The notes: a model not told the origin generated them from the sequence alone. A DNA stretch of 64,000 nt from an uncultured delta proteobacterium (GCA_963804165.1 CAWDPO010000046.1:355720-419719), one strand, 5' to 3'; shown: positions 17,134 to 51,185, numbered from the stretch's first letter. Numbers and translations: made by a program.

Positions 17134-17258
17134 GAAGCAGTGGACATGACACCAAATTGTTTTGCGCGGCGGGCGTCCACAAGTCTCAAAATCGGAGTGA
17201 TCCTGGCTGGCGTTCGCATCAGAGCTGAAATCACGCTCTCGCGGAGTGTTCCGTTCTT

Positions 17259-18236
17259 TTGTTTATTGCTTCACTTGGCGACGCCGTTCTCGTCGAAGGC
17301 GCTGAGTCTCCGGCGCTCGAGCGCATGAACTTTGGGTACAGCGCCGCGGGTACCGTTGCCACGGCGCCGCTGTGGATTACCCAGGACAGCGGCGTGTTCA
17401 AGAAACACGGATTCGACGTGAAACCGATCTATATGGCGGGCGGATTGGCGCCGGTGGCGATCATGGCCGGCGAAGTGCAATTTGCGATCATGTCCGGCGG
17501 AGTAATGATCCCGCCCGTGCTCAAGGGCGCGGATCTGGTCATGATCGTCGGCTTGAGTAATTACATCAATCAATCTTTGGTCGTAGCGCCGGAGATCACG
17601 GATGCGAAGCAGCTAAAAGGCAAGCGCATCGCGATTCAGCGCCTCGGCGATCTCACCCACATCGCCGCCCGGGAGGCCGTCAAGCATTTGGGCCTGGCCG
17701 AATCGGACTTGCAATACCAGCAGATCGGCGGCGTGCCGACACGATTCGCGGCGATGCAGAGCGCCAACACGCAAGGCGCCGTCTTGTCTCCGCCCTACGT
17801 CGGGCGCGCGCGGCGACTGGGTTACCGCATCATGGTCAATCTCCATGAGCTCAGAATTCCTTTCGCGGGTTCCAGCGTGGTGACGACGCGGCAGCTGATT
17901 GCCAGCCGTCGCCCGATGGTGCTGAATCTGCTCAAGGGATTCGTCGAAGGCGTTCATTTCTATAAACGCGAGCGCGAAGCTTCGATCCGGATCATCGAGC
18001 GCTATATTCCGGGCGCCGCGAAGGATGAGTTGAGCGAAGCGATCGATCACTATCAGCGCGACCTGGAAGATCGTCCCTATCCGCGGCCCGAAGGGATCAA
18101 GACCGCGCTCGACCTTTACGCGCAGCAGAATCCAGCTGCAAAAGGCGTCGATCCCGAGCGTTTCATCGATCAGTCTCTTCTGCGCGAGTTGGAGCGCAGC
18201 GGATTTTTCGCCACGCTTGCAAGCGGCGCAAAGTGA
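17259..18236 (+). CDS. ABC transporter substrate-binding protein (NMT1/SsuA-like); signal peptide probably in a shifted frame
   Basis: PLWITQDSGVFKKHGFDV, LKGKRIAI and RFIDQSLLRELERSGF motifs. Confidence 0.85.
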   Translation: MFIASLGDAVLVEGAESPALERMNFGYSAAGTVATAPLWITQDSGVFKKHGFDVKPIYMAGGLAPVAIMAGEVQFAIMSGGVMIPPVLKGADLVMIVGLSNYINQSLVVAPEITDAKQLKGKRIAIQRLGDLTHIAAREAVKHLGLAESDLQYQQIGGVPTRFAAMQSANTQGAVLSPPYVGRARRLGYRIMVNLHELRIPFAGSSVVTTRQLIASRRPMVLNLLKGFVEGVHFYKREREASIRIIERYIPGAAKDELSEAIDHYQRDLEDRPYPRPEGIKTALDLYAQQNPAAKGVDPERFIDQSLLRELERSGFFATLASGAK

Positions 18237-18277
18237 TTCGCCACAAAGACCGGGCGACGAGGTCTCGGGAAAATTTT

Positions 18278-18304
18278 CACCACAGAGACGCGGAGTTCAC
18301 AGAG
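18278..18304. repeat. Short 9-bp-periodic CACAGAG-type intergenic repeat
   Basis: CACCACAGAGACGCGGAGTTCACAGAG; related units (CACGAAG/CTTCGTG) occur at 40762-40957. Confidence 0.5.
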
Positions 18305-18319
18305 GGTTAGGAATCACAT

Positions 18320-19315
18320 ATGACCTTACGAACAGTTAAGCCGCTCTTCGTTCTTGTTGCGCTGCTTGTGTCCGATCGCGGGGTCGTTCATGCGGCGACG
18401 GCGCTCGCCAAAGTTCTCGTCACGACGGGTTCCTCGAGTGAGCGGGAAGGGGCGCTGTACGTTGCGCAAGATCAGGGGTACTTCCGCAAGTACGGCCTCG
18501 ACGTCACTTTAGTGCAGGTGCGCAACGGTCCCGTCGGCATGGCGGCGCTCAGCTCCGGGGAGTCGCTACTTCATTGGGGCTCGGTTTCGGCGGCCAACCT
18601 CGGTGCGATCGCCGAGGGGGCCGATTTAGTCTTTGTCGCCGGCTTTATCAATAAACTGACCGGCACGTTTGCGGCTAACCCGAAGATCAAAGCCCCGATG
18701 GAGTTGAAGGGCAAGAGTTTGGGCGTCAACAGCCTGAGTGGCGGCACCTGGATTTTCACCATGCTTGCGCTCGATCACTGGGGTCTCTCGCCCGAGCGCG
18801 ACAAGATACAAATCAGGGCGCTGGGAGACAATTCGGTGGTCTCGCAGGCCCTGTTGGCCGGCAACGTCGACGGCGCCTATCTGAGTTACACCTATGCCAA
18901 GATCGTGCAGAACAAAGGCTTCCGCGTGCTCGCCGATTTAGAGAAGTTACCGATCGCGTATCAGGGTACGGGAATCATAACCCGGCGCAGCACCATCGCA
19001 TCGTCGCCGGCGCCGGTCGAAAGTGTCATCAAAGGATTGCTCGACGGCGTGACGTTCATTCGTATTCCGGAAAACAAGGCGCAGGTTATAAAAAGTCTGG
19101 CCAAGGGACTCCGTCTAAAGCGCATCGAAGACGCGGAGGAAGGATATCAAAGCATGCTCGGCCTCTACGAGAAAAAAATCTCCCCCAGCGTCGACGGTGT
19201 GCGCAACGTCATCCGCCTCCTCGGCGCCGGCAACGAAAGGATACGACGCCTCAAAGCGGAGGATTTGGTGGACGATAGCGTTGTGCGAAGATTAGAACGA
19301 GAGGGGCGGTTTTAA
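18320..19315 (+). CDS. ABC transporter substrate-binding protein (NMT1/SsuA-like)
   Basis: Signal peptide, LYVAQDQGYFRKYGLDV, LKGKSLGV. Confidence 0.88.
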   Translation: MTLRTVKPLFVLVALLVSDRGVVHAATALAKVLVTTGSSSEREGALYVAQDQGYFRKYGLDVTLVQVRNGPVGMAALSSGESLLHWGSVSAANLGAIAEGADLVFVAGFINKLTGTFAANPKIKAPMELKGKSLGVNSLSGGTWIFTMLALDHWGLSPERDKIQIRALGDNSVVSQALLAGNVDGAYLSYTYAKIVQNKGFRVLADLEKLPIAYQGTGIITRRSTIASSPAPVESVIKGLLDGVTFIRIPENKAQVIKSLAKGLRLKRIEDAEEGYQSMLGLYEKKISPSVDGVRNVIRLLGAGNERIRRLKAEDLVDDSVVRRLEREGRF

Positions 19316-19484
19316 CTCTTGCTCGAAATAATGATCCTGTCACTTCATGAACCACGTTGGTTACATCGCGCTGATGGATAACGAGCAGGGCGGTCAACAT
19401 CGACAGTTAGCCCAATAGGTCAATACGAATACCTGACGATGACCCGCATGCCGCAAGGCATGCCGGAGAAACCGGGAGGAAACG

Positions 19485-20966
19485 ATGAAGAGAACAATTA
19501 GGTTTGTCGTAGCGGTAATCTTCGCACTATGTTCCCAGGCTTTGGCGTCTTCGGCGGAACTTTCCAGCGAGAATCAAGCGAAGCTGATCAAGGGTATCGA
19601 TTCCTATGCGTCACGAATGTCGGACGTCGCGCTCAAGATTTGGTCCACTCCCGAGCTCGGCTATCAAGAGAGCAAAACCTCCGCGCTTCTCCAAGACGAA
19701 CTCAAGAAGGCGGGCTTCAAGGTCGAGGCAGGAGTCGCCGGCATCCCCACCGCCTTTATCGCCCGCGCCGGCACGGGCGACGGTCCGGTGATCGCGATTC
19801 TCGCAGAAATCGACGCGTTGCCCGGCATGTCGCAAGCCGCCACACCGGAACGTAAGCCGATCCCGGATCAACTGGCCGGTCACGCCTGCGGTCACCATTT
19901 ATTCGGTTCGGGCTCAGTGGCCGCGGCGATCGCTATCAAGAACTGGCTCGCCGAGAGCGGCACCAAGGGACAGATTCGCCTTTATGGCACGCCGGCGGAG
20001 GAAGGCGGCGGAGGCAAGGTCTACATGGCGCGTGCGGGACTTTTCAAGGATGTCGACGTGACGCTTTACTGGCATCCGGGGGACGCGAACAATGCCTCTC
20101 AGGATCGTAATCTGGCGAACACCAGCGCAAAGTTCCGTTTCCATGGTGTAGCCTCGCACGCGGCGGTTGCTCCCGATCGCGGCCGTTCCGCGCTCGATGC
20201 GGTCGAGGCGATGAACTTCATGGTCAACTCCATGCGTGAGCATGTTCCTCAAGACGCGCGCATTCATTACGTGATCACCAATGGCGGCGCGGCGCCGAAC
20301 ATCGTGCCTGAATTCGCCGAGTCCTACTATTATGTGCGCCACCCCGATCCGCGCGTCGTCGCGGAAGTGTTCGAGCGCGTCAGGAAGGCTGCCGAAGGTG
20401 CAGCGCTCGGCACCGGGACGACTTTTGATTATGAGCTGATCAACGGGGTCTACAGCATCTTGCCCAACGACGTGCTGGGTCGAGTCATGGACTCCAGCCT
20501 TCGTCGGATCGGCGCGCCCACCTGGACGGCTGAAGAGATCGCTTTCGCCGAGAAGCTTCAGAAGACGCTTCCAGGGAAAAATCTGCCGCCGCTGACGAGC
20601 GCAAAGGAAATCCGTAAATACCAATTCAATGCACAGAAGTATTCGTCCACCGATTCCGGCGACGTGAGCTGGGTCACGCCCTTGGCGACACTCAATACCG
20701 CCACCTGGGTTCCCGGAACATCGGCGCATACTTGGCAAGCGACGGCCGCGGGCGGGATGAGCATCGGACTGAAGGGGATGGTAGTCGCAGCCAAAACCCT
20801 CGCACTTGCGGTGGCGCAGCTGTACACCAGCCCTGATCTGATCGCGGCTGCCAAGGCCGAGTTCGATAAGAGCCGCGGTCCGGGCTTCGTCTACAAGTCG
20901 CTTGTTGGCGATCGGTCGCCACCGTTGGGTTATCGAAACGCATCAAGCGGCGCAGACCCGGGATGA
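19485..20966 (+). CDS. M20 family amidohydrolase (AbgB-like), secreted
   Basis: PELGYQE, EIDALPG, GHACGHH, GTPAEEGG and STDSGDVS motifs. Confidence 0.9.
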   Translation: MKRTIRFVVAVIFALCSQALASSAELSSENQAKLIKGIDSYASRMSDVALKIWSTPELGYQESKTSALLQDELKKAGFKVEAGVAGIPTAFIARAGTGDGPVIAILAEIDALPGMSQAATPERKPIPDQLAGHACGHHLFGSGSVAAAIAIKNWLAESGTKGQIRLYGTPAEEGGGGKVYMARAGLFKDVDVTLYWHPGDANNASQDRNLANTSAKFRFHGVASHAAVAPDRGRSALDAVEAMNFMVNSMREHVPQDARIHYVITNGGAAPNIVPEFAESYYYVRHPDPRVVAEVFERVRKAAEGAALGTGTTFDYELINGVYSILPNDVLGRVMDSSLRRIGAPTWTAEEIAFAEKLQKTLPGKNLPPLTSAKEIRKYQFNAQKYSSTDSGDVSWVTPLATLNTATWVPGTSAHTWQATAAGGMSIGLKGMVVAAKTLALAVAQLYTSPDLIAAAKAEFDKSRGPGFVYKSLVGDRSPPLGYRNASSGADPG

Positions 20967-21242
20967 GCGAAGCAAAGACTGGCGCATCTTCGGCGCGGAA
21001 ATGGATGCCGCGCAAAAAGCATTGCCAGACGCCCCGGCGAAGCCCGCGCCATAACGAAGATGCGCGATGTTGGAGATGTTGGAATAGATGAAGCGAAAGT
21101 GAAAAACTGGAGTCCGACGTGCGAAACTCGCTCGAACCCCTTTTCTCCGTATGGTTTAGTAGAGTTAGGTAAGTCAGACACCGATTGATGGTTCTCCGCG
21201 ACATAGGCGCGCGGGCGATTCTCGTACACTAGCAGGAAGAAA

Positions 21243-21665
21243 ATGGTTCGCCTAAAGCCGAACACGATTCGCCTGCTTGGACGACTTCACGTATGTTTAT
21301 GGAAGCTATGCGGGGGAAAACTAGAGAACGCGTTTGGAAGACTACCGTTCATGATGCTCACCACGACGGGTCGGAAGACAGGCCAGCGCAGAACAACACC
21401 GGTTCTCTATCTCCAAGATGAAACGGGCCTCATTGTTATCGCCTCTTTCGGGGGAAATGACATGCATCCGGCATGGTACCTCAATCTTGAGCAATGTCCG
21501 CGAGCCGAAGTCATCGTAAGGGGTGAGCACCGGAGGGTTTTGGCACGCAGGCTCTCGCCCGAGGAGAAAAAGTTGATCTGGCCTCGGTTGGTGCAGTTAT
21601 ACCCTCAGTTCAAAACCTATCAACAACGAACCCGTCGAGAGATTCCGTTGATGAGGCTAATGTAA
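21243..21665 (+). CDS. Deazaflavin (F420H2)-dependent nitroreductase family protein (Ddn-like)
   Basis: LTTTGRKTGQRRTTP, IASFGG..HPAWYLNL and YQQRTRREIP motifs. Confidence 0.9.
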   Translation: MVRLKPNTIRLLGRLHVCLWKLCGGKLENAFGRLPFMMLTTTGRKTGQRRTTPVLYLQDETGLIVIASFGGNDMHPAWYLNLEQCPRAEVIVRGEHRRVLARRLSPEEKKLIWPRLVQLYPQFKTYQQRTRREIPLMRLM

Positions 21666-21920
21666 TTCGTGATGGATAGGCGCACCTCCACTGGTCGATT
21701 TTCATATTTTTCTCCGAGCTCGGTTTATCCTTTGGGCGAACCCAATTTAGGCGAGTTAGGCAGGTCAGGGACCGGTAGTACGCGCGCACTTGACGCGCGT
21801 TTAACTGGCGAGGCTGTTTCCAACAAGCATCGTTACGTGTTTGGAAGTCTTGGACTTGTCTTTTTTTACGATCTGGGTAAGGACATTTTAATCTGCACTC
21901 TCGTTTACGCAAAAATCAAC

Positions 21921-21944: not shown

Positions 21945-21981
21945 TCGACAGATTATTACGAATAACACATATCCCTGCCGC

Positions 21982-26350: not shown

Positions 26351-26352
26351 CC

Positions 26353-29692: not shown

Positions 29693-29766
29693 ACGCGATC
29701 CGATGGCGAAGAGGAAGGGAATCGGTGATGCGGAGGCGCTTGCCGGCTGCTGATGCGCGGCTCTTG

Positions 29767-29904
29767 GTAGGCTGCTGAAAAACACTCCAGGAGTCCTTCG
29801 ACACGGCTCAGCACGAGCGGAGGTATTTTTGAAATCGTTAAAGTTTTTCCGTTCATGCTGAGCTTTGTCGAAGCATTCCGAACCGAACCTTCGGCAACCT
29901 GCTA
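29767..29904. mobile_element. MITE-like element with AGGCTGCTGAA-type ends and an internal REP-like inverted pair
   Basis: Left end GTAGGCTGCTGAAAAAC, right end TTCGGCAACCTGCTA; internal arms CTTCGACACGGCTCAGCACGAGCGG and CCGTTCATGCTGAGCTTTGTCGAAG. Confidence 0.6.
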
Positions 29905-31164
29905 GTCCGAGCGATAACTCCACAGCTGGGGGATCAGCCAGCAGGTACCGATAATCGTCAGGGTGCAGAGCACGCAACCGACCAGCGCGGCGTTGGGTGC
30001 GCCGAGCAATGCCGCGCCAGCGCCGGCGATGACCGCGCCGGTCGCATTGGTAGTTTGCGCGAAAACCGTCAAAAAACTCGTCGCCCGACCGCGCATGTCG
30101 TCCGGCGCGAGGATTTGCACGACGGTGCGGCGGATCGAGACGCTGATGGCGTCGCAAAAACCAAGGGCGCCAACCGCCAACAATCCCATCAAAAAACACT
30201 GGGATAGCCCGAAAAAACCCAAACTCAGCGCAAACATCAGCGTCCCGATAATCGAAACCGCGCCTTTACGTTTGATATCGCCGGCGGCGAGCAAGAGGCT
30301 CGAACCGATCAAGGCGCCGATGGCGGGCGCGGCGTAGAGCATGCCCAAGCCGCGCGCGCCGACTTTGTAATACAACGTCGGCAAAAATCGGCAGGATGGG
30401 CCTGAAGAAACCGAACAGCACGGCAAAAAAATCGAGCAAAAATAACGACAGGATGATCCGCGTGTGCCAGAGAAATTCGAAGCCTTCGATCAGGCTGCGC
30501 CAGCTGATTTGCCGGCGTAGGCCTTGAGGTTGGCCCGAAGCGCGAATGAGCAGCAGCGGAAATCACCGAAGGCACAAGCAACGCGGCATCGGCGAAGTAA
30601 GAGGCCTGCACGCCAAAAAAATCGATCAGAAACCCGGCGATCACCGGCGCGGTCAGTTGGGTGCCCTGCATCATGAGCGTCGCCATGGTGACGGCGTTGA
30701 GAAGATGGGACTGGGGCACGAGGCTGGGAATGATCGCCTGGCGCGCCGGTCCGCCGAGAACCTGGAGCGACGACGCCACGATATTGAGCGCGTTGACGTG
30801 CCAGACCTGCGCATGCCCCGGCGAGGGTGAGAATCGCGAGCGCCAGACCCGGCAGCACGTTGAGTGAATGTGTGATCGCGATCAACTTTTTGCGATTGAG
30901 CGTGTCGGCCAGAACGCCGCCAAAAAGACCGAAGAAGATAAACGGCAGCGCCTGAAAAAATCCGGCCAAACCGAGCTGCACCGATGATCCCGAGAGTTGA
31001 TACACCTGATAGAGGCTCGCCACGTTGCGCATGTGGTTCGCCGTACTGCTGCAAAGAATCGTGATGAAGATCAGACGATAGTCGCGGATCAGGAGCGAAG
31101 ACCAGGGACGGATGGCCCGCGCCGGCTGCGGCTCGGCTGGAGGATAGTCTTGCGGTGATGACAC
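29902..31164 (-). CDS. MFS transporter (EntS/H+ antiporter-like), frameshifted
   Basis: GLFGGVLADTLNRKKL, PARQAIIPSLV and PDDMRGRA across three ORF pieces. Confidence 0.82.
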
Positions 31165-31299: not shown

Positions 31300-32397
31300 A
31301 TGTATATCGACGGCGACACTCATTACTGGCCCGTGCGTTTTCTCGACCGCGTGAAACATTCCGGCCGCGGCCATCTCGAGTTTCAAAAAGGCGCCGGCGC
31401 GATGGTTCGCTACGGCGAAACTTTTCCCGGCGACGCCGCGACTTATTATCGAGACGGCAAAAAGATTCATTCCTTCAGCGAGACCCGCTGGAATCTCGAC
31501 ATGCACCACGAAATCATGGAGCGGGAAGGTTTCGACTATCAGGTCGTCATCGCCGACAACCGGCCGTTGATTTACGAAGTCGATCCCGATCTCGGCATCG
31601 CGATGGCACGCGCCTATAACGACACGGTGGCGGAGGAAATAGCCGGCAAGGATTATTTTATCGGGACCGCCTGGGTCTATTTGCCGGACGTCGATGAAGC
31701 GATTCGCGAGCTACGCCGGGCGGTCAAAGATCTCGGCTTCAAAGGCGTCAAGTTGATGGGCGGCCACGCCAACTGCGACCTGGATGCCGAAGTGCTCTGG
31801 CCGTTCTACGAAGAAGTTTGCAAGCTCGACGTGCCGATCCTGGTGCATCCGGGCACGCGCGTGTTCGAGGCGCAGGATTGTCATCCGTGGTTGGTCGGCA
31901 GCGACCGCTACGACGGCTTCAAGATGCTCGCGACGGCGCTGGGCTTTCCGCTGACCTATATGGTCAGCGCGGCGCGGTTGATCATGAGCGGGGTTTTCGA
32001 TCGCTTTCCTACCTTGCGGATTGCCGTCTTCGAAGGCGGCGTCGGCTGGGTGCCGTGGCTGATGCGCACGCTCAATCATCACACCCTCGGCGCATCGCCG
32101 GGGACGACTTCGGTCAACGACTTTTTCCGCAAGCGCGACCGGCTGAAGAAGGAGCCGAGCGCTTACTTCGATCAAATTTATGTTGCGGCCATCGCCTGGG
32201 AAGATTATCTGCCGCACATCGTCGAGATGTGGCCCAATCACAACATCATCATCGGCAGCGATTTCGATCATGGCGACGCGATCTCGACCTGGCCCAACAC
32301 CGTGGCGCCGATCAAGGCGATGAAGGGGATTTCAGACGCGGACAAAGAAAAAATTCTCGGCGGCAACGCAGCCCGCCTGTTCGGGATGAAAGTTTAA
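31300..32397 (+). CDS. Amidohydrolase-2 family protein (ACMSD/LigW-like decarboxylase or hydratase)
   Basis: IDGDTH, LDVPILVHP, GVFDRFPTLR, GSDFDH and KILGGNAARLF. Confidence 0.88.
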   Translation: MYIDGDTHYWPVRFLDRVKHSGRGHLEFQKGAGAMVRYGETFPGDAATYYRDGKKIHSFSETRWNLDMHHEIMEREGFDYQVVIADNRPLIYEVDPDLGIAMARAYNDTVAEEIAGKDYFIGTAWVYLPDVDEAIRELRRAVKDLGFKGVKLMGGHANCDLDAEVLWPFYEEVCKLDVPILVHPGTRVFEAQDCHPWLVGSDRYDGFKMLATALGFPLTYMVSAARLIMSGVFDRFPTLRIAVFEGGVGWVPWLMRTLNHHTLGASPGTTSVNDFFRKRDRLKKEPSAYFDQIYVAAIAWEDYLPHIVEMWPNHNIIIGSDFDHGDAISTWPNTVAPIKAMKGISDADKEKILGGNAARLFGMKV

Positions 32398-32436
32398 AAG
32401 CGCGATATCGGATCATGCAAACCATGAGGAGGAATC

Positions 32437-33573
32437 ATGTATCGGAGACCTGAAACCAAAGCGGCGGAAGAAAAGGTCTACAAACAAAAACAGATCGGCG
32501 AGTTCATGACCACCTGGAAGGATTTTCCCAGGCCCGGTTTGGCGGCTTGGGCGGAGCGCCGGAAGGCCGGTTTGATGGGCACGGCGAAAAGCACCCGTTA
32601 CACGCCGCGCTTTCGCCCCTTCGACATGCTCAGCATCCCCAATCAATCGTTGGTGATCCTCGAGAACGAATATCACCGCATCGGCGTCGAAAGCGTGGTG
32701 GGCGTGCAGGACAGTTTCCACCGCTACATCGATTCGGACATGGTCTATTTCCAATTTTGCGGCAACAGCACCGTGGAAACCGAGTTCGGCGTCTACGAGA
32801 TGGAGCCCGGCGAAGTGATGCTGGTTCCCGGCGGCATCGCCCATCGCTCGATCGGACGCAACGACAGTCTGCGCTACTTCTGCCAAAGCCACGAGGCGGT
32901 GGACTACGTGATGAAAGAGGACCAGTACACGAGCCAAACCAGCTTCGAGGTCAAACGCATCGGCGGTCCCAATTGGACCGCGCCGCAGGGCGCGAATGCG
33001 CCGACGAAGGGGCCGGTCGTGGAGAAGATGCATTTCTGGGACGATGGGCCGGACGACCAGACGGTGGTGGAGCGCGATTACGAATCGCTCGTCGGCGTCG
33101 CCGGACTGCGGCGCGGCGAGCCGGGAAGTCTCGTGCGCAAGCTGCGCGCCTTCGATCACTTCACGGCGATCGTCGGCAAGGGCCGCGAAGACGCCGGCAC
33201 CCAGCCGCTGATGGAATCGGCCAATATGCGGATACGCACCTACAACATGCAGGACGAGCAGTTCGCCTTTCATCGCGCGCTGCGCAGCGAGGAAGTGCGG
33301 ATTCAGTTCCGCGGCGACGCGCTCGATCTTTCCGAGTTCGAAAACGTCGAAGTTTCTCCCGGCGAGATCACCATCATCCCGCTGGGCATTTCCCACAGCG
33401 TGATCAGCATCCCGCCGGAAGACGAGAATTTCCTGCGGCTCAACTTCTACAGCAAAGTCCGCTGGCGCGTCCCCATCGATCCGACGAAGCACTATTTCGA
33501 CAGCAAGTTCGAGATCAAAACGACCGTGCACAAGCAGGCCGAGTGGAGGGAGAAACTCGCGGCGGCGCGGTGA
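32437..33573 (+). CDS. Bicupin protein resembling homogentisate 1,2-dioxygenase-type enzymes
   Basis: Two repeats: FHRYIDSDMVYFQFCG..PGEVMLVPGGIAH and FHRALRSEEVRIQFRG..PGEITIIPLGISH. Confidence 0.65.
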   Translation: MYRRPETKAAEEKVYKQKQIGEFMTTWKDFPRPGLAAWAERRKAGLMGTAKSTRYTPRFRPFDMLSIPNQSLVILENEYHRIGVESVVGVQDSFHRYIDSDMVYFQFCGNSTVETEFGVYEMEPGEVMLVPGGIAHRSIGRNDSLRYFCQSHEAVDYVMKEDQYTSQTSFEVKRIGGPNWTAPQGANAPTKGPVVEKMHFWDDGPDDQTVVERDYESLVGVAGLRRGEPGSLVRKLRAFDHFTAIVGKGREDAGTQPLMESANMRIRTYNMQDEQFAFHRALRSEEVRIQFRGDALDLSEFENVEVSPGEITIIPLGISHSVISIPPEDENFLRLNFYSKVRWRVPIDPTKHYFDSKFEIKTTVHKQAEWREKLAAAR

Positions 33574-33648
33574 GTCCAGAAAGTCATGAAGTGAAAGTCT
33601 GACGCCCGGTGACCGGATGGAAAAGTAGCCTGTCACTTTAATAGTCCC

Positions 33649-34657
33649 ATGCCGATTCAGATTGACCGGAACAGAGCAGAGAACCTCGCACCTCAATTCG
33701 ACGAAGCGCTCGAACTCGTGCGCAACGAATTTGAGGGGCTCGACCCACACCGCCAGTACCGCAACGCCTTCGCCCGGCTGCTGAAGCCGGATCCACTTGG
33801 GCGGGTGCTGATGATGGGCACCGACCAGCGCGACATGTTCGTGCCCGAGCTCCGCCGCGCCATAGAAACGTCGGTGCCGAGCGACGGTCACATCTTCGAC
33901 TTTGGAGCCGGTGACGGTCAAACCTTCGCCCTGGTCGCCGATTCAGTGCCGCAGGGCACCCGCGTCTCGATCGAGGAGCCCAATCCCGAATACCTCGCAA
34001 ACTATCGTGCTTTTCTAAAAACAATGGCGCATTTGCGGCCGCGGTATGGCGCTGGCTGCAGAATTTGATGAGATCGACGCAGCAGCCGAGCGCTCGGGGG
34101 AAAAGCTACCGTCCGATGGCAGTATCGACCTCGGTCTTGCACTGCACATGATCTACTTCGTAAAAGACCTTTCCGCCAGCGTCACAAGGATGGTGCGCTT
34201 CTTGAAGCCCGGCGGTGTGCTGTTCGTCGTCGTGACCGACGAAACCGTCGGCTATACCGGCCTCGCGCTGAAAAGTTTTATCGAACACGGCGGCGACACC
34301 GGCGACAACGCGCGGCATCTCTCAGTCATCGCCGAGCGCCGCCGCTTGCTAGGATTACCCGCGGAGGGCGGCGGCGCGATTGCCGAAGTGCTCCGTGCCG
34401 CGGGAACTCCGGTGGAAATCAACGTGCGCCGCCAGCCGAGCCGACTCTACGGACACAATCTCGCCGACCTGATCGCGCTCTCCTCGATTGCACTCCTCGC
34501 CAGCGTCGAAGGCCTCGAAAAGTTCGAGGCCGCCGCCGCACTGCTGCGTCACAACCCCGAAGCCGTGGACCTGCGCATCGAAGACGACGGCCCCCGTAAA
34601 GGCATGTGGAGCGTCACCCAACCGCAATGGGTCGCCGCCTTCAGTCGAACTCGCTAG
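33649..34657 (+). CDS. Class I SAM-dependent methyltransferase (frameshift near 34045)
   Basis: FDFGAGDG, EEPNP, then HMIYFVKDL...LKPGG. Confidence 0.8.
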
Positions 34658-34833
34658 CAACCTTTCTCCTCTTTCGGTGAGGACGGGAAGATTGTAGTAA
34701 GTGAAGTGTTATGTCTGATCGCGCGTTCCCATCGATCCGAACCCGGCAATATTTCGCAGTGAGGTTATGTGCACAACCAGGCCGAGTCGGGGGTTATGCT
34801 TTTCATCCAGAGCCCGCTGAGATATTATTTGAT

Positions 34834-35010
34834 ATGGCAAAACGTTCCCGGCCCGTATCAGGTTCGCGCATTTATCCGATCATCAGCGGCAAGGAGCGGC
34901 TAGCGATCTGGGAGAAGGCCCGTGGTATGTGGAAGAAGCGGGGAGCCGATCCCCTTCAGGAGCTGAAAGAAATGCGCGTCTTGGGTGAAAAACGCTCACC
35001 TCTCAACTAA
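34834..35010 (+). CDS. Probable antitoxin upstream of the PIN toxin
   Basis: Small protein with GMWKKR, directly abutting the PIN gene. Confidence 0.5.
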   Translation: MAKRSRPVSGSRIYPIISGKERLAIWEKARGMWKKRGADPLQELKEMRVLGEKRSPLN

Positions 35011-35156
35011 GTGTACACCCTCGACACCAATGCGATTCTCTACTACCTAAAAGATGATAATAATGCCGTGACCATCTTGCGCGGCGTCTTCGCGCAAAGT
35101 TCGCTAGTCTACGTCTCCGCCGTTACCGAACTAGAGCTCTTGGCATTCAACTGTCT
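35011..35156 (+). pseudogene. Truncated VapC/PIN toxin
   Basis: YTLDTNAILYYL...VYVSAVTELEL; PIN similarity stops where the higBA operator begins. Confidence 0.75.
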
Positions 35157-35175
35157 TGTTCCCAAAATGGGAACA
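35157..35175. promoter_or_regulatory. Palindromic operator upstream of higBA
   Basis: TGTTCCCAAAATGGGAACA; second copy TGTTCCCAAATCGGGAACA at 43749. Confidence 0.65.
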
Positions 35176-35189
35176 CGGTATCCTAGATT

Positions 35190-35483
35190 GTGCGAGTTAT
35201 CTCGGTGAGGACACTGAAGTCCTTTTGGGAGAAGCATCCGGATGCCGAGGGTCCCTTAAGAGCATGGTATACCGAGGCCAAGAGAGCCAGATGGAGAAGC
35301 CCGCAGGATATCAAGACCGCGTACCGCACGGCGAGTATTCTTCGCAACAACCGTGTCGTATTCAACGTCAAGGGGAATACGTATCGGCTGGTCGTAGCTG
35401 TGAAGTACGAATTTCTGGTTGTTTATATCCGGTTCGTTGGTACCCATGCGGCGTACGACAACATCAAAGCAGAAGAGGTCTGA
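35190..35483 (+). CDS. higB: HigB family toxin
   Basis: MRVIS..LKSFWEKHPDA, RVVFNVKGNTYRLVV and YIRFVGTHAAYD. Confidence 0.92.
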   Translation: MRVISVRTLKSFWEKHPDAEGPLRAWYTEAKRARWRSPQDIKTAYRTASILRNNRVVFNVKGNTYRLVVAVKYEFLVVYIRFVGTHAAYDNIKAEEV

Positions 35484-35484
35484 C

Positions 35485-35835
35485 ATGACGATCAAACCCG
35501 TCAAAACTGAACGTGACTACCAGAAAGCTCTTAAAGAAATTGAAAAGCTTTGGGACGCCAAGCCGAACACCGCAAAGGGCGACCGGTTGGACGTGCTGGT
35601 CACGCTGGTCGAGGCCTATGAGCAGAAACACCACAGGATCGACCCTCCTGATCCGATCGAAGCCATCAGGTTCCGCATGGAACAGCTTGAGCTCAAGCCA
35701 TCGGACCTGGCGGACATTCTCGGGGGCCGGAGCCGAGTGTCGGAAATTCTCAACAAAAAGAGGAAACTGACAGTTGAGATGATGCGGTCTTTGCGCAAAC
35801 GCCTCGCTATCCCCGCCGAATCGCTACTTGCATGA
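35485..35835 (+). CDS. higA: HigA family HTH antitoxin
   Basis: IKPVKTERDYQKAL, PDPIEAIRFRMEQ and RVSEILNKKRKLT. Confidence 0.92.
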   Translation: MTIKPVKTERDYQKALKEIEKLWDAKPNTAKGDRLDVLVTLVEAYEQKHHRIDPPDPIEAIRFRMEQLELKPSDLADILGGRSRVSEILNKKRKLTVEMMRSLRKRLAIPAESLLA

Positions 35836-35983
35836 GCGGTTGTCTACCTTCTGGCTCGCAATCCAAGAATCAGTAGGTAAGATTGTATAGATTGAATGGT
35901 TCCACGTCCCTGCCAGCATCATCGCAGCCACCGCGATGTTTACTGGCAGCACATTGCTTACCCGTAACACACGCAACTTCCGA

Positions 35984-37168
35984 ATGATCTCGACGCCGTT
36001 CCGGCCGCGCTGGCATTTCTTCATCGCGCTCGTCTCCATCACCTTCATCGGGCCGCTGTCGATCCATTTGTTCATCCCGGCCATGCCGGCGGTGAAGGAG
36101 GCCTTCGGGGTCTCGACCGGTATGGCGCAGCTCACGCTGTCGCTCGAGATGCTGTCGATGGCCTGCTTCACGGTCGCCTATGGCGGCTTGTCCGACCGCT
36201 TCGGGCGCAGACGCGTGCTTCTGGGCGGCCTGGTGCTGTTCACCTGCGGCGCAGCCACCTGCATGGTCGCCGCTAACATGCCGATGCTGCTGGCCGGGCG
36301 AATACTGCAGGGAGCGGGAGCGGGATGCGGCGTCGTGCTGGCGCGCGCCATCGCCCGCGACGTCTACGGCCAGGACCGCGTTGCCCAGGTGATCGCCTAT
36401 CTCACCGCCGCCTACGTGCTGGGGCCGATGCTTGCGCCGCCGATCGGCGGCCATCTGACCGTGCTGTTCGGCTGGCGCGCGCTGTTCGTGCTCGCGTCGG
36501 CTGTCGGGCTTGTGGTGATCCTCGCGGTGGCTTTCGCGGTGCCGGAAACCCGCGCGCGTAACGTCGCCGCACCGCGTGGCGTATTCGCCGGCTACAAGTC
36601 ACTGTTGCGGCGCCCGCGCTTTGTCGGCTTTATGCTCGAGCCCGGACTGATGTCGGGAGCTTTCTTCACCCAAGCGACCGCGGCATCATTCCTCGCCGCC
36701 GAACATCTCGGCGCCGATGCATCCAAGATCGGCCTGTGGTTCTTCACCTTCCCGATCGGCTTCATGGCCGGGAGTTTCATCTCGGGCCGCATCGGCGCCA
36801 ACCGTTCGATCGAATTCATGACCATCCTCGGCGGCGTGATAGGGGTCGCCAACGGCGCGCTGCTCGCCGGCTGGCTATATTTCGGCGGCGTCTCGATGGC
36901 TGCGCTCTACATTCCGGGAATCTTCGTCGGCCTCGCCCAGGGCCTCGCCATGCCCTACGCTCAAGCCGGCGCTATGGCCGTCGACACCGAACTTGCCGGC
37001 TCGGCCTCGGGCGCGGTGGTGTTCTCGCAGTTCTTCTGGCCGGCCGCGCTGCAGCAGCTCACCGGGCTACTCGCGGACGGTACCTGGGTACCGATGGCGA
37101 CGGTGCACTTTGCCGCAATGACCGGAGCACTACTCGCCGGCTGGATGGCGGTGCGGGCTAAGGGCTAG
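35984..37168 (+). CDS. Bcr/CflA family MFS efflux transporter
   Basis: PAMPAV, GGLSDRFGRRRVL, GRILQG and RAIARD motifs. Confidence 0.9.
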   Translation: MISTPFRPRWHFFIALVSITFIGPLSIHLFIPAMPAVKEAFGVSTGMAQLTLSLEMLSMACFTVAYGGLSDRFGRRRVLLGGLVLFTCGAATCMVAANMPMLLAGRILQGAGAGCGVVLARAIARDVYGQDRVAQVIAYLTAAYVLGPMLAPPIGGHLTVLFGWRALFVLASAVGLVVILAVAFAVPETRARNVAAPRGVFAGYKSLLRRPRFVGFMLEPGLMSGAFFTQATAASFLAAEHLGADASKIGLWFFTFPIGFMAGSFISGRIGANRSIEFMTILGGVIGVANGALLAGWLYFGGVSMAALYIPGIFVGLAQGLAMPYAQAGAMAVDTELAGSASGAVVFSQFFWPAALQQLTGLLADGTWVPMATVHFAAMTGALLAGWMAVRAKG

Positions 37169-37436
37169 TGCTTTTAAATCGAGTCAAGGTGACCGATCCC
37201 TCGTAACTCGTCAGGCTTTCTGCGGGTCTCAGTGGGTTATCCCGAATAATTCGCTTAAAGTGAAACAACTGGACTGCGCGCTAACGTTGAAAACGTAGTG
37301 TGACCGACGAAAATCCGAAATGTCAAAACACAGACGTGACCCTAAGGCTGCTCCGTTATGAGAAAGCGGAGTAACTGTTTCACCTTCATCAATTTGACAC
37401 GGCTACGCCAAATATCTTAAGACAGGAGCCTATCGC

Positions 37437-37832
37437 ATGAAGCTCAAGGTAGTGCTAACGGTCTCAGCGCTTTACCTGGCCGTCCTTGGCGTCGGGTTCA
37501 TGTTTGCCCCACGGGAGATAGGTATCGATGCCGTTCCAGCGGATGCCTCCCCCGCACTGATCGCCTATCTGCGGATTTTCGGCGGTCCTATTCTTGGAAT
37601 TGCAGTGTTGAACTGGATGGCTCGGAATGCGGAGCCCTCTGCGGCGCGTAACGCCATTGTCCTTGGCAATATCGTTGGCTTTGGTTGCGTGACTTTAATG
37701 GACGTATGGGGAGTGTTCAGTGGTGGCGCACGCCCGGTCGCGAAACTGTTCCTTGTGATTCATCTGCTTATGACTGTCGCCTTCGTCGTGGCAGGGCGCG
37801 CCAGCATGCGTGCCCAAGGGAACAGATCATGA
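37437..37832 (+). CDS. Small four-TM hypothetical membrane protein
   Basis: AGGAG RBS, hydrophobic segments, ATGA overlap with the next gene. Confidence 0.75.
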   Translation: MKLKVVLTVSALYLAVLGVGFMFAPREIGIDAVPADASPALIAYLRIFGGPILGIAVLNWMARNAEPSAARNAIVLGNIVGFGCVTLMDVWGVFSGGARPVAKLFLVIHLLMTVAFVVAGRASMRAQGNRS

Positions 37833-38293: not shown

Positions 38294-38341
38294 GCTTGTC
38301 GTAGCTATGTCAGGTCTTGGCCGAACGCACATAAATTAATA

Positions 38342-38390
38342 GGGTCGCGTCTCGCATTGCGACAAATGTGTGATTGCAAGACCTGGCCCC
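38342..38390. mobile_element. Miniature inverted-repeat element with GGGTC...GACCTGGCCCC ends
   Basis: GGGTCGCGTCTCGCATT...ATTGCAAGACCTGGCCCC; arms match 12/17 by hand count and resemble the ends of the Y1 transposase at 50061-51094. Confidence 0.55.
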
Positions 38391-38399
38391 AAGCGGGCT

Positions 38400-45098: not shown

Positions 45099-45111
45099 TT
45101 ATTGGGCTTCG

Positions 45112-46545: not shown

Positions 46546-46561
46546 CAGGGGAGAGTGCTTC

Positions 46562-47065
46562 ATGCCCGAAGCGCAGCGCGAGCAAAATGATCGAACCGTG
46601 CGCGAATTGGTGGAAGACTTTCTTTATCAAGAAGCGGCGCTCTTGGATCAATGGCGGTTGGATGATTGGTTGGCCCTTTTCACTTCCGATGGCAGATATT
46701 TTGTCCCTACCACGGACCTGCCGGACGGAGACCCCAGGACAGACCTGGTGTTTATCGACGATGACATGGTACGGCTGCGTGCTCGGGTGGAAAGACTCAA
46801 GAGCCGCCATGGCCACAGAGAATATCCTTCGTCCCGCACAAGACGCTTCATCACCAATATCATCATCAAAGTAACGGAAGACGGCATGGTCGTGACTTCG
46901 TCGTTCCTCATTTACCGCTTCCGTCTGGGGGAATCGAGTCCCTACGTCGGTTGGTACGAGCACCAACTAAAGCAAGTGGACGGGCAGTTGAAGATCCATC
47001 GTAGAAAAGCCGTGCTCGACATGGAAGCGCTGAGCGAGCACGGAGCCGTCAGCATCATTCTATAA
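46562..47065 (+). CDS. Aromatic ring-hydroxylating dioxygenase beta subunit
   Basis: VEDFLYQEAALLDQWRLDDWL, RVERL, PSSRTRRFITN and SIIL. Confidence 0.92.
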   Translation: MPEAQREQNDRTVRELVEDFLYQEAALLDQWRLDDWLALFTSDGRYFVPTTDLPDGDPRTDLVFIDDDMVRLRARVERLKSRHGHREYPSSRTRRFITNIIIKVTEDGMVVTSSFLIYRFRLGESSPYVGWYEHQLKQVDGQLKIHRRKAVLDMEALSEHGAVSIIL

Positions 47066-47214
47066 CGTCGTGCGCTGGATGTTTGTCGTGATCCTGCCGC
47101 AATCGTCAACCGCTCGGCGTCGTTGAAAAAATCTTCTGGCGGGCTTTCTCGACGGTTAAACGAGATTCCGATTCGCCTGCGATAGCATGACACCAGCAAT
47201 TTAGGAGAATTTTC

Positions 47215-47427
47215 ATGCGAAGATTTCTTTCTGCCTGCCTGCTCCTGCTGCTCGTGGGCTGCGGCGATAAAGCGAAGGATTTATACGATACCGCGCAGTT
47301 GGAAGAGAAGCAGTTCAACAAAACGCACGCGACGAAACTTTATCGGCAGATCGTATAAAAGTATTCCGAGTCGCCTTACGCGAATCAGGCGAAGACTCGT
47401 TTGGCTGAGCTGGAGAAAGCGCGTTAG
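47215..47427 (+). pseudogene. Small TPR-like lipoprotein with an internal TAA at 47356
   Basis: AGGAG RBS; MRRFLSACLLLLVGCGDKAKDLYDTAQLEEKQFNKTHATKLYRQIV*KYSESPYANQAKTRLAELEK; lipobox LVGC. Confidence 0.65.
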
Positions 47428-47608
47428 TCAATCATCAAGGACCCTACCGACTGCTCTCCCTCTGACGGTTGGCCCTCGGCTTCGTTTTCTTAGAGCTTTT
47501 TGGCCCCAAACATTCGCGTTCGAAACGCTTGAAAGACGCCCTTTTATGCCACGTTAGATTGCTAAATCATGAAGTTGTCCCGACGCGACCCGTAACTGCG
47601 GTAGTCCC

Positions 47609-49315
47609 TCACGAAAACAGCTCGCGATCCCGAATCTTTCGCGGGTCCGTGTAGTCTTTCGCAAACCACGGCTTTTCGCCAGCTTTGCGCGGCGGCCTCG
47701 CGAGCTGGAGCTTCTTCCTCGCCGTCTTGGCTTCCTTCTGCACGACGCGGAAGTGATAGTGATCGAAGATGCGCAACGCTTCAACGGCGTAAGATACCGC
47801 GATGCGCCGGTCGCGGATCATCAGCAGGTTCTCGCCGTTCTTCTTGTCCGCGGGAATCGAGAAATTGTACGAGCCGAGGTAAACTCGCGCGGTGGGCTTG
47901 TCGAAATCGATCACGACAAACTTGTGGTGCATGCGATTGCCGCCGCCACCGGCCGGCTCCTTGTTGAAAGGCGCCGGGATATTCTTGTCGAGCGCCGAGG
48001 CGAAGACCGGTGCGATATTCCCATTTGGCATCTGAAGGTCGATGCCGCCGACTTTCTTATCAGAGATGCCGTAGACGAAGATACCGGCCTTCTTGGAGAT
48101 CTTCTTGAGCGCTTCCTTGATGATGCCGGGCGTTATCGAGAGGAACGCTAGGGAATAGAACAGACACGACGTGGTCTTGCCGATGTCCTCGCCGATCCCG
48201 TCGAGTAGCGCGTTCGATGATGAGTGCGGTGAGAATGCCACCTTCGCATCAATGTTATCGAGGCCAAGATTCGTTAATTCGGCCGAGTCGGTGTCGTCGA
48301 ACTCGTGTTCCTTGTCGAAGTAGTTATCGAAGGCGGCAAGTGCCAGGTCGACGGCCTTTTTCCCCTCCACGACGAAGGCGTTGTTGGCCTGCACGTACAG
48401 CCCGCGCCAACTGAGATTGGTTGAGCCGAAGACGACCTTCTTCGTCTTTGAACCGTTTACGATTATCATCTTGTTGTGCTGCAGGCTCTTCATGTGCTGG
48501 CGCTTTACGTTGGCTTCGCCAGCCGTCTTCTTGAGACGCGTTGCGGATTGCGTTTCGCCGGAGTCGGATTCGCCGTGCTCCTTGCTGTCGTCGATGATGA
48601 TTCTCAGTTTCTTCTTAAGCTTTTCAAACCGACCGACGACCTCAGGCTCGCTAAGATCGTAGGCGACGACCCGAACGTCGGCTTTCTCCTTGATGGCTTG
48701 ATCCAGTAGATCGAGGATCGTCTCTCGTGCCTCGAAGCCCATCCACGCAAGTGCTTCATCCTTTTTAGGATGCGTCCCCTTGAATTTCAGGCCGTCCTTC
48801 GCCTTAGCAGGGATCAGGGTGTTGATCTTGCCGAACTTCTCGTAGCGGTCCACGAACGCCTGCGAGGAGACGAAGCCGCGGGTGAACGTGATGTTCACCT
48901 GGCCCGGGTACGTCTCGCGCCGCAGTTCGATGCCGGCTTCCTGCGGCTCGCCTTGGCTGAGCCGATCTTCCTCGTCCATGAAGATCGGCGTTACGCGGTA
49001 GGTAAACTCACCGTCGAGGTTGGCATTGCGCGGAAAATGCACCCACCGGAATTTTTGAATCGGCGAAACGAGCGTCGAGAGCTGAATCGAATTGATCTGG
49101 CCGTCGGCACCCGCAAACGTGAGGCGGTTGTTAAGAGGAAAGAAGGTATTGCCACCGGGTGGCTTGGACTCAATCGCGAAGCCGACGAAATTATTCGGTG
49201 GCTTTCCGTTTTTCCAGTTCATCGCGACGAGACACATCCCGTCGCCGCGATGGAGCTTGAGTGTGAATAGCGCCTTCGTGTTCTTGCCGATCACCTGGAA
49301 ATCGCTGGCCGCCAT
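47609..49315 (-). CDS. Phospholipase D superfamily protein with two HxK motifs
   Basis: HNKMIIVN...GSTN and HHKFVVID...GSYN; no obvious signal peptide. Confidence 0.88.
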   Translation of the reverse strand: MAASDFQVIGKNTKALFTLKLHRGDGMCLVAMNWKNGKPPNNFVGFAIESKPPGGNTFFPLNNRLTFAGADGQINSIQLSTLVSPIQKFRWVHFPRNANLDGEFTYRVTPIFMDEEDRLSQGEPQEAGIELRRETYPGQVNITFTRGFVSSQAFVDRYEKFGKINTLIPAKAKDGLKFKGTHPKKDEALAWMGFEARETILDLLDQAIKEKADVRVVAYDLSEPEVVGRFEKLKKKLRIIIDDSKEHGESDSGETQSATRLKKTAGEANVKRQHMKSLQHNKMIIVNGSKTKKVVFGSTNLSWRGLYVQANNAFVVEGKKAVDLALAAFDNYFDKEHEFDDTDSAELTNLGLDNIDAKVAFSPHSSSNALLDGIGEDIGKTTSCLFYSLAFLSITPGIIKEALKKISKKAGIFVYGISDKKVGGIDLQMPNGNIAPVFASALDKNIPAPFNKEPAGGGGNRMHHKFVVIDFDKPTARVYLGSYNFSIPADKKNGENLLMIRDRRIAVSYAVEALRIFDHYHFRVVQKEAKTARKKLQLARPPRKAGEKPWFAKDYTDPRKIRDRELFS

Positions 49316-49619
49316 GTTTGCCTCTCCCCTTTATCGCTGTACCTTAACGAGGATAGCTTTTAACATAGACAGGCACCCCAGCGGTAGGGCGCAAAGGACG
49401 AGCTGCCATCTCAGCCGCCGTTTAGTTTGCAAATGAGAGCCTACACGTATGGATTTAAATTGCTTGCGCGGGATGATTGTACCAGGAATGGCATTTGATC
49501 AATGGTGTAACCACTCGTTGTTATCCTGCAATTACTCTACTAGAACTGGGAGCGCAATCAAGCTATACAGCAAGCGTTAACCCTTCGTGTCGGCGACAGG
49601 CAGCAGCGAGGAGAGGCGT

Positions 49620-49760
49620 GCGGTAGGAAAGCAGAAGCAATTTAGCGCTGAGTTTAAACGCTTAGCCGTGCGACGAATAGAAAGTTTATCGGTTGGGCTG
49701 AGATCGGAGGGGCGAAAATGGAAGAGGGTGTCACGATTGCCAAGGTGCCGCCTTGGATGA
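49620..49760 (+). pseudogene. Possible IS3-type OrfA (HTH) remnant
   Basis: Translation KQKQFSAEFKRLAVRRIE resembles transposase OrfA N-termini; short and decayed. Confidence 0.4.
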
Positions 49761-50083
49761 AACTCAAACCCGAGAAGAAGAGATAGTCACGTTGCTGCGC
49801 AGCTTGGGATTCGAAATCAGTGAGGAATGAAAGAGACTTAGGCAAGTCTGACACCGATGCGGGACCGGCCCGCCGTTTTGGACCCAGAGGCAAGCTCGAT
49901 ATCTCGCGCAATGCTGGCAATGAGCGCGGTTTTGTTTGCGAGGTAGAGTTCTCGGCAAAAAAAGTTTTTCTGTCGCGCGCAGCGGCCTTGCCCGGCAACA
50001 GGGCCAAGCCGAAGGTTGTATGATTGACGCACCCACGCTGAGGGTCAAGGGTCACAAAAAGGGGTCAAGTCCGCTTTTAGCTA

Positions 50084-50112
50084 TTGACGCGAGATTTAAG
50101 ATGAAATAGAAG
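50084..50112 (+). promoter_or_regulatory. Candidate sigma70 promoter of the transposase (near-leaderless transcript)
   Basis: TTGACG-17 bp-TAGAAG, ATG 6 bp later, no RBS. Confidence 0.45.
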
Positions 50113-50118
50113 CTCGAC

Positions 50119-51090
50119 ATGGCCAGACCCCTACGGATCGAATACCCCGGCGCGTACTACCACGTCATGAACCGAGGCCAATCCCGCCGTAGTCTCTTCA
50201 TCGAAGACCAAGGACGCCAGACTTTTCTCGACCTGCTCGCCGACATGGCCCGGGTCTGGAAGGTCGAGATCTACGGCTATTGCTTGATGGATAACCACTA
50301 CCATCTCCTGATGTCGACCCCCACGGGAGTTTTGTCTCGCCCCATGCGCCATCTGGACGGAATCTATACGCAGAAGTTTAACCGGGTCCATCATCGTGAC
50401 GGGCCCCTGTTTCGCGGCCGGTATAAAGCGATCCTCATTGATGCCGAAGAGTATTTTCTATCGGTGCTCCGCTATATTCATAAAAACCCCCTGGGCGCCG
50501 GCGTGGTCTCGAATATAGACCGCTACCGTTGGAGCAGCCATTGGGCGTATTTGAACAAGAAGCAATGCCCCGACTGGCTTGATACGCGCTCGGTCATGTC
50601 ACGGTTCGGTGGATTTAAAGAATATCAGAGATTCATGCATGAAGAGATCGAAGAAGAGATTGAAGAGTTTTACCAGGGGCCGTACCAGAAGCCGGTACTG
50701 GGGAGCCCGGAATTCATCGGAAGGGTCAAACAAAGGCTCGGGAAAAAGGCCCGTGTGGAAGAAGAGAAGCCCCAATCGAGGCGGCTTTTTAGCCCCTCTC
50801 TCGACGAGATCGTGCAGGCAACGGCACGAGGGTATGGGAAGAGGGTCGAGGAGTTGAAGCGACGCAAGAGAGGCGGGGAGAACGAGGCGCGGATGGTAGC
50901 GATCTATCTTGGCCGGCAATTGGGCGGGCACAAGCACGAAGAGATCGGGAAAACGGTGGGACTGGTGAAAGCATCATCGGTGAGTTCGGCCTATTTGCTG
51001 ATGAAGGTGCGGGTAGCGAAAGAGAAAGAGCTTCACCGGAGAGTTCGACGGATTGAAGAAGCATTACTAAAAAGCAAACAGCGGACTTGA
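50119..51090 (+). CDS. RAYT-like Y1 HUH transposase with C-terminal DnaA-like HTH
   Basis: MARPLRIEYPGAYYHVMNRG, YCLMDNHYHLL (HUH), GPLFRGRYKA, YIHKNP, YRWSS; C-terminal EARMVAIYL..EIG. Confidence 0.92.
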   Translation: MARPLRIEYPGAYYHVMNRGQSRRSLFIEDQGRQTFLDLLADMARVWKVEIYGYCLMDNHYHLLMSTPTGVLSRPMRHLDGIYTQKFNRVHHRDGPLFRGRYKAILIDAEEYFLSVLRYIHKNPLGAGVVSNIDRYRWSSHWAYLNKKQCPDWLDTRSVMSRFGGFKEYQRFMHEEIEEEIEEFYQGPYQKPVLGSPEFIGRVKQRLGKKARVEEEKPQSRRLFSPSLDEIVQATARGYGKRVEELKRRKRGGENEARMVAIYLGRQLGGHKHEEIGKTVGLVKASSVSSAYLLMKVRVAKEKELHRRVRRIEEALLKSKQRT

Positions 51091-51185
51091 CCCCCTTTGG
51101 TCTCCCCTTTGGTTCTCCTGAGTTGCTTCCGCCGATGAAATTACAAACGCAAAGGGTAGTATCGAAAACGGAATGCGGCAGCCTG

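Follow-up and report, generated by a model that had tools for sequence, protein, structure and literature searches.

The RAYT transposases and their REP and REPIN sequences constitute a system in which a Y1 transposase gene is flanked by inverted short repeats that are also dispersed as singlets and as hairpin-forming doublets. ISCR and IS91 elements carry a Y2 Rep-like HUH transposase and have distinct ori and ter ends. TIRtrons are RAYT-like genes flanked by terminal inverted repeats, with enzymes named TIRYTs, and their repeats share a common GGGGWSAS, may overlap the 3' end of the gene, and occur singly, as dimers, or in groups (Di Nocera, De Gregorio and Rocco 2013, PMC3733652). In a later classification, proteins bearing Bac_DnaA_C are placed in subclass 2.1.2, whose C-terminal domain is of a Bac_DnaA_C, HTH_23, or HTH_28-like kind, and subclass 2.1 probably corresponds to the TIRYTs (Quentin et al. 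2018, PMC6006769). Here, an element of this type is described in a 64,000-nt stretch of DNA from an uncultured delta proteobacterium (GCA_963804165.1 CAWDPO010000046.1:355720-419719), hereafter the window, to whose positions all plain coordinates refer; its source genome, G000, comprises 7.5 Mb in 46 contigs and is 81% complete. None of the statements below relies on the relative G005, which is unpublished. The architecture has already been described in print, and the window element is a further TIRtron. With a probability of roughly 0.77, it is an intact unit of ~1.05 kb composed of a TIRYT and terminal inverted repeats, with solo repeats and doublets as derivatives, in a neighbourhood whose mosaic of genes would stem mainly from horizontal exchange.

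The gene for the TIRYT-type Y1 (HUH) tyrosine transposase lies at 50119..51090 on the plus strand, has its TGA stop at 51088-51090, and encodes 323 amino acids, as established with Pfam, NCBIfam, and its translation. Pfam Y1_Tnp matches amino acids 12-123 with 49.2 bits (cut-off 23), while a Bac_DnaA_C-like helix-turn-helix at amino acids 229-292 scores 28.4 bits (E 1.7e-6; gathering cut-off 31.5), and this same C-terminal region matches the C-terminal positions 346-436 of TIGR00362 (DnaA) at E 4.4e-7. The NCBIfam model REP_Tyr_transpos reaches 71.7 bits over its positions 4-146 of 146 (cut-off 80), and the NCBIfam IS200 model only 17.3 bits (cut-off 55), so that the enzyme appears to be closer to REP-associated than to IS200 transposases. 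The translation contains H60-Y61-H62 and Y119, the latter in RYIHKNP, which we take, from knowledge of the family, to be the catalytic HUH and tyrosine residues. A PDB sequence search with the transposase gave no match at E up to 0.01 and, therefore, these residues could not be anchored on a solved structure.

The transposase gene is bracketed by two inverted repeats of one family, family A. The left terminal repeat (50049..50085, plus strand, tip to the left) scores 39.7 bits with the family-A profile, has its core GGGGTCAAGTCCGCTTTTAGCT from 50061, and is preceded directly on its outer side by two extra GGGTCA heptamers. The right terminal repeat (51070..51106, minus strand, tip to the right at ~51094-51098) scores 35.8 bits and overlaps the gene's final codons and stop. 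It corresponds to the index site (51076-51094) of a first-pass annotation of this DNA, which had listed eight related strings, all supposedly intergenic, as recombination scars; all eight are present, each once in the window, but the index site covers the last four codons of the transposase and its TGA stop. The inverted partner of the index 19-mer, which had been overlooked, is located at 50061-50079 with two mismatches. At up to three mismatches, the 19-mer has two matches in the window against 0.01 expected from shuffles, and the pair extends to 37-nt arms that are 81% complementary. The tip GGGGTCAA fits the published GGGGWSAS at seven of eight positions, and an adjoining GGGTCAC heptamer fits except for the first G.

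The limits of the whole mobile unit (50047..51098, plus strand) are given by the homology limits of its copies. A second copy at G000:C30:60462-61514 is 71% identical across 50047-51098 and not at all beyond; this is a decayed pseudogene with a protein match in three segments. Further copies, 70-74% identical, occur at other loci in the relatives G004 and G008 (two copies in the latter), and related elements in soil metagenomes (four contigs from three runs) begin to match at 50057-50059, two of them stopping at 51094, with unrelated sequence outside. Two joints among these contigs, with short sides or low depth, were left out of account. Thus, homology in relatives and metagenome contigs stops at both tips, ~50047-50059 and ~51094-51098, and since the homology of the copies ends there, the comparison supports a transposase unit that would move alone. 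An empty site of the element itself was sought in 20 relatives, in none of which the locus is syntenic, and a search of sequencing runs did not find the strain of the window itself, the best run sharing 0.12 of the sampled words.

In the part of the TIRtron report available, the features shared with the window element are a Y1 gene with inverted repeats tipped GGGG(T)(C)A, the right one overlapping the 3' end of the gene, small repeat families occurring as singles, dimers, and groups, and several TIRYT genes with different repeats per genome (PMC3733652). Relative to the examples in that part of the report, however, G000 has far more repeat families (about ten) and Y1 matches (20), and it adds doublets made from two families, as well as short units of flank and tip in tandem beyond the ends (PMC3733652). 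The window protein also resembles the TnpAREP-like subclass 2.1.2, as outlined in the classification, in being a long Y1 protein with a C-terminal Bac_DnaA_C-like helix-turn-helix and no REP hairpins by its gene (PMC6006769), a placement made by domain architecture alone.

Solos and short inverted doublets in G000 recall the REP and REPIN sequences that accompany RAYT transposases, and the Y1 gene of the window is likewise flanked by inverted repeats that occur dispersed. In contrast to that system, the single repeats here are not palindromic, the transposase is multi-copy with paralogous families, and the repeat copies amount to tens, not hundreds. No GTAG tag was noticed in the aligned family-A copies, among which no search aimed at GTAG was made. 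The Y1 HUH catalytic domain (Pfam Y1_Tnp) is shared with IS200/IS605 elements, but the ends in the window are inverted repeats and not subterminal hairpins, the protein has an extra predicted C-terminal DNA-binding domain, and its IS200 score is below the cut-off.

The window element belongs to a large set. Y1_Tnp matches in G000 number 20, and nine of the 14 paralogs of at least 180 amino acids have a flanking inverted repeat scoring at least 15, each with its own sequence and most starting GG(G/T)GTCA. In total, 62 repeat tips were counted (22 adjoining a Y1 gene, 6 in doublets, and 34 solo), which belong to about ten families with low copy numbers, 4-19 per family. In other phyla, an inverted repeat pair is present at 53 of the 62 related loci that have enough flank, nearly all beginning GGGGTCA(A/G), and the closest named records are metagenome-assembled genomes titled Candidatus Binatia or Deltaproteobacteria. 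Because it is found at related loci across phyla, the GGGGTCA tip is a conserved feature of the whole family, and the published GGGGWSAS consensus may be too narrow at its last position.

The family-A profile detects 19 copies at 21.7 bits or more, the best match in the reversed genome, which served as the null for profile and motif counts, being 10.1 bits. Among these copies are both ends of the window element and the pair on C30; the others include solos, two doublets of 150 nt on C17, and a deletion derivative on C23. For a C17 doublet of family A, the folding energy is -31.7 kcal/mol (z -5.9; none of the 200 shuffles used for fold significance equals it), and single repeats have no significant folding (z -1.66 and +0.35). 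Family B, which reads GTGTCAGACTTGCCTAACTCTACTAA from the tip inward and was reached through the AAGTC(A/T)GACACC sites of the first-pass annotation, numbers 18 copies with at least 17.3 bits (the reversed genome reaching 13.6 bits at best) and has its own transposase element on C8. Solo repeats have their inner side facing the 3' end of a gene in 23 of 33 cases (~0.02 one-sided), a count for which the open reading frame (ORF) calls are crude and in which some repeat copies adjoin each other.

A hybrid miniature element also occurs, a doublet of ~95 nt at G000:C11 ~187809-187906, in which a repeat of family B is paired with one of family A, both tips facing outward. Just outside many repeat ends, moreover, the tip heptamer and a few flanking bases are repeated in tandem two to four times, as in the window at 50029-50067 and 51095-51120 and at the G000 elements on C1, C6, C17, C34, C39, and C46:78112; among these cases are GGGTCA three times at the left end in the window, GGGGTCA four times at the right end on C6, and an 18-nt flank-plus-tip unit twice on C1. 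Such tandem repeats may have been left by repeated strand transfer at the tip or may form arrays of binding sites.

Apart from the intact family-A element, the repeats in the window comprise two solos of family B, a single end of family C, and a doublet of family D. One family-B solo (21153..21183, minus strand, tip right; nhmmer 29.4 bits, E 3.6e-6) contains the 21171 site; a weak inverted partner is possible at ~21110-21137, an 84-nt version (21098-21181) lies between other genes in G025, and the fold of 21100-21186 is no better than that of shuffles (z +0.79). The other (49834..49858, minus strand, tip right; nhmmer 18.5 bits) contains the 49844 site, abuts the 3' end of a small broken ORF, and gives the highest score in the window (13.5 bits) with a generic tip model for which only repeat ends from elsewhere were used. 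The family-C repeat (37209..37346, minus strand, tip right at 37344) contains the 37332 site and has five blast matches in the genome including itself, the copies being 83-85% identical at C28 and 76% at C17; it lies after an MFS gene (stop 37168), and matches run on to 37255-37343 in G036, G004, G033, G030, and G006. The family-D doublet (38306..38391, unstranded) comprises 85 nt in two inverted arms, the left one beginning GTCAGGTCTTGGCC and the right one being the reverse complement of a sequence beginning GGGGCCAGGTCTTGCA, and contains the 38340 site in its centre and the 38377 site in its right arm. Three other partial copies of it are found on C17, C11, and C26, with 94% identity to G000:C17:2572-2633 and C11:194453-194498, and its hairpin of -15 kcal/mol is moderate (z -1.64, 10 of 200 shuffles being as good).

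The proposal that the looser motifs are ends of Y1 elements holds, in consequence of these family matches, for five of the seven secondary sites (21171, 49844, 37332, 38340, and 38377), whose repeat families have tips matching the inverted repeats that flank Y1 genes in G000. It was also correct that repeat ends sit in intergenic spacers beside unrelated genes. The 33595 site is uncertain: this tip-like motif (33589..33606, minus strand), 16-33 nt past the stop of a cupin gene, is the third-best window match of the tip model with 6.9 bits, a range (6.9-8 bits) in which the genome has 24 matches and the reversed genome 20. It has no other copy in G000; G004 and G036 have a similar motif in front of a different downstream gene, and G035, G029, and G031 lack it. 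The 17135 site (17135..17153, plus strand), which follows the DUF4231/SLATT gene and had been listed as a 15/19 match to the index site, is at chance level by exact-mismatch counts and by synteny with G021 and does not belong to the system. The index 19-mer has 28 sites in the genome with up to four mismatches and 17 with up to three, leaving 11 at exactly four, where ~17 would be expected for a random 19-mer over 2 x 7.5 Mb at uniform composition. No repeat-family model detects this site, and G021 carries the DUF4231 and NMT1 genes at 85% with homology running straight through it and the motif not conserved. Six of the eight sites thus seem to be explained by element ends, solos, the family-C end, and the family-D doublet, with one uncertain and one due to chance.

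The region at 32-40.5 kb is a mosaic of gene-sized modules that match various places in relatives with 82-97% identity. Almost all gene junctions coincide with a module boundary, and four of these boundaries (32398-32436, 34660-35080, 35872-35995, and 37817-37829) have no tip match. Part of this region, 32398-35995, which is bounded by a conserved gene for an amidohydrolase (31300-32397) and by the MFS gene, is a hot spot of gene gain and loss with 0 to at least 3 unrelated genes across the genus. Its cargo is absent in G038 and consists of a cupin gene alone in G035 and G029, cupin and polysaccharide deacetylase in G004 and G036, cupin and methyltransferase in G031, cupin, methyltransferase, and deacetylase in G003, and cupin, methyltransferase, and further ORFs in the window; an HTH_3-containing ORF is among the hot-spot genes. 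Several cupin matches stop at 33603, within the 33595 motif, and downstream of it the window and G003 have the methyltransferase, whereas G004 and G036 have the polysaccharide deacetylase. No repeat was found at the right edge of the cupin-MFS cargo, the spacer before the MFS gene in G004 being 28 nt long. The ~1-kb cupin-MFS insert of G004 was considered as a possible TIRtron and ruled out, as it encodes a polysaccharide-deacetylase-like protein. In G003, a 147-nt duplicate of the 3' end of the cupin gene follows the methyltransferase, which seems to point to homology-driven recombination rather than to a site-specific enzyme.

Elsewhere in the genome, a module of 1.47 kb (G000:C28:16482-17950) contains a family-B repeat, then ~10 codons of a transposase, and then, on the opposite strand, a gene for an alpha/beta-hydrolase. 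It is 92-95% identical in G003, G004, and G036, the left (outer) flank of G000 differs from those of G003 and G004 exactly from the tip outward, and inspection of its right boundary showed no repeat. In G025, a gene, a B repeat, a gene, and a B repeat follow each other in one orientation.

In the mechanism that we favour, the transposase would recognise and cut at the conserved tip, moving the unit, and could also act in trans to move or copy the short derivatives, which would build up in intergenic spacers that tolerate them, for the most part directly behind genes. Horizontal exchange and recombination driven by homology, both among related species, would be the main sources of the gene-by-gene mosaic, and not gene capture by the transposase. 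A rather unlikely alternative is that the Y1 enzyme captures and moves single genes through the tip motifs, either as dispersed integron-like cassettes, as proposed in the first-pass annotation, or from one end as in ISCR and IS91. This idea can draw on the cupin matches that stop at 33603 before different downstream genes, on more than ten matches in relatives that stop at 37340-37345, on the variable cargo of the amidohydrolase-MFS locus, and on the orientation of solos towards gene 3' ends; by functional analogy, moreover, the C28 module, with one precise end at a tip and one variable end, resembles one-ended capture by ISCR or IS91, and the gene-repeat-gene-repeat order of G025 resembles a cassette array. 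However, the window protein matches Y1_Tnp only and its two ends are inverted copies of one sequence, unlike those of ISCR and IS91; a Pfam scan of 63 window ORFs, which left aside about a dozen short ones, found no integrase family, and no attC-like core was noticed at the inspected cargo junctions (one spacer being that of 28 nt), for which no attC model search was made. The intact element and its relatives carry the transposase only, and no family-A pair with tips outward encloses a complete passenger gene. Three such spans of family B (on C8, C11, and C28) do enclose a complete non-transposase gene and are at most candidate two-ended units. The matches ending at the family-C tip are mostly copies of the repeat itself, the four junctions of the mosaic and the right edge of the cargo lack a tip or repeat, the methyltransferase of G031 is present without the motif, the G003 duplicate is a sign of homology-driven recombination, and the 17135 site fails outright. 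A weight matrix made from the eight sites is not enriched beyond them either, its 11 window matches being the 8 training sites and 3 others against 3.2 expected, and its genome matches 350 against 291 in the reversed genome. There is, in short, no good evidence that the scattered repeats capture neighbouring genes, and a literature search, mostly without subscription journals, returned no paper in which TIRYT or TnpAREP-like enzymes capture genes.

A related and similarly doubtful idea is that the GGGGTCA tips of TIRYT elements are active recombination points as well as transposon ends, so that solos and modules would be footprints of one-ended or abortive strand transfer that occasionally carries or replaces neighbouring genes and helps to build the mosaic of the genus; it could draw on right-end repeats that stand alone just behind unrelated genes, on modules with a precise tip boundary on one side and a variable boundary on the other, and on the flank-plus-tip tandem repeats. 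The solos could instead be domesticated REP-like elements that the host retains at gene 3' ends, for example to stabilise or terminate transcripts, and be placed there by selection, which we consider very unlikely: the 23 of 33 intergenic solos facing a gene 3' end and the family-C element after the MFS gene in G036, G004, G033, G030, and G006 are what such a role would predict, but single repeats lack a significant hairpin, the same repeat stands in different gene contexts in different genomes, and copy numbers are low. That all secondary motifs are chance matches picked by eye is extremely improbable. The short core TGAC(C/A)CC is indeed barely enriched and by itself uninformative, with 1078 genome matches against 791 in the reversed genome, and the 12-mer pattern has 12 against 10; generic short motifs (GGKGTCA, GGKGTCAGRCYT, and others) exceed the reversed genome too little for single sites to be called, the 33595 score is in the noise range, and 17135 is due to chance. 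Nevertheless, the family models place the five secondary sites named above in repeats well above the reversed-genome null, which refutes chance for these five of seven, and the independent tip model, made from 21 repeat ends outside the window, ranks sites of the first-pass annotation 1st, 3rd, 4th, 5th, and 7th in the window, with five window matches reaching at least 5.6 bits where the reversed genome predicts 0.81.

Some observations weigh against an intact TIRtron with simply inserted derivatives. The DnaA_C and REP_Tyr_transpos scores are both under their curated cut-offs, and the tip GGGGTCAA departs from GGGGWSAS at one of eight positions. Transposition, excision, and cleavage would all have to be deduced from sequence comparison. 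Moreover, both the orientation of the solos towards gene 3' ends and the breakpoints exactly at tips beside unrelated genes, as at 33603 and on C28, fit simple insertion less well than some tip-associated rearrangement. These features are, at the same time, compatible with repeats that insert into tolerated spacers and sometimes serve as rearrangement points.

To our knowledge, TIRYT elements have been described by sequence comparison only and the mechanism of their movement is not known. G000 is unusually rich in them, with about ten families, 20 Y1_Tnp matches, and ~62 tips, and has intact, decayed, miniature, and hybrid forms together. The tip being conserved across many phyla, this genome could be a good source of substrates for a first biochemical test. 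If single genes were in fact moved in this way, a Y1 enzyme would have to be counted, with ISCR elements and integrons, among the movers of single genes, which the present evidence does not show.

Several other features of the window deserve mention. A small ORF of 55 amino acids (49718-49825) is conserved and aligns in G003, G004, G006, G008, and G011, with blast segments of 84-96% in G003 and G006, and belongs to no Pfam family; the window copy is broken by a 52-nt deletion, stops after 22 codons, and has its last codons replaced where the family-B solo begins. A structured RNA had been suspected at 49610-49825 and proved to be this small ORF. At gathering scores, Rfam gave no family anywhere in the window, a search of 49300-50060 with E up to 1 was likewise negative, and ARAGORN found neither tRNA nor tmRNA in the window. 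Right after the stop of an M20 peptidase gene, a fragment of ~105 nt (20962-21073) is homologous to the 3' coding end of a gene for 459 amino acids in G025 and is 78-81% identical in four further relatives, looking like a gene remnant at a rearrangement junction. The nearby gene for an F420H2-dependent quinone reductase (21208-21673) shares 93% identity with G009 and 89% with G033, much more than the neighbouring genes do, and both flanks differ there.

Other short multi-copy sequences of the window are located at 29756-29906 (~20 copies elsewhere in the genome), 7398-7493 (8), 55061-55136 (6), and 56913-57030 (6), the copies of the last adjoining Y1-like genes or fragments on C2 and C26. Short perfect palindromes, GGGCGTAT...ATACGCCC, recur in the spacers of relatives (G038:C50 and G006:C68) and may be a separate REP-like repeat family of the genus. 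An unrelated insertion sequence is represented by a DDE transposase gene (DUF772 and DDE_Tnp_1_6) at 57199-58815, with a similar fragment at 59492-59968.

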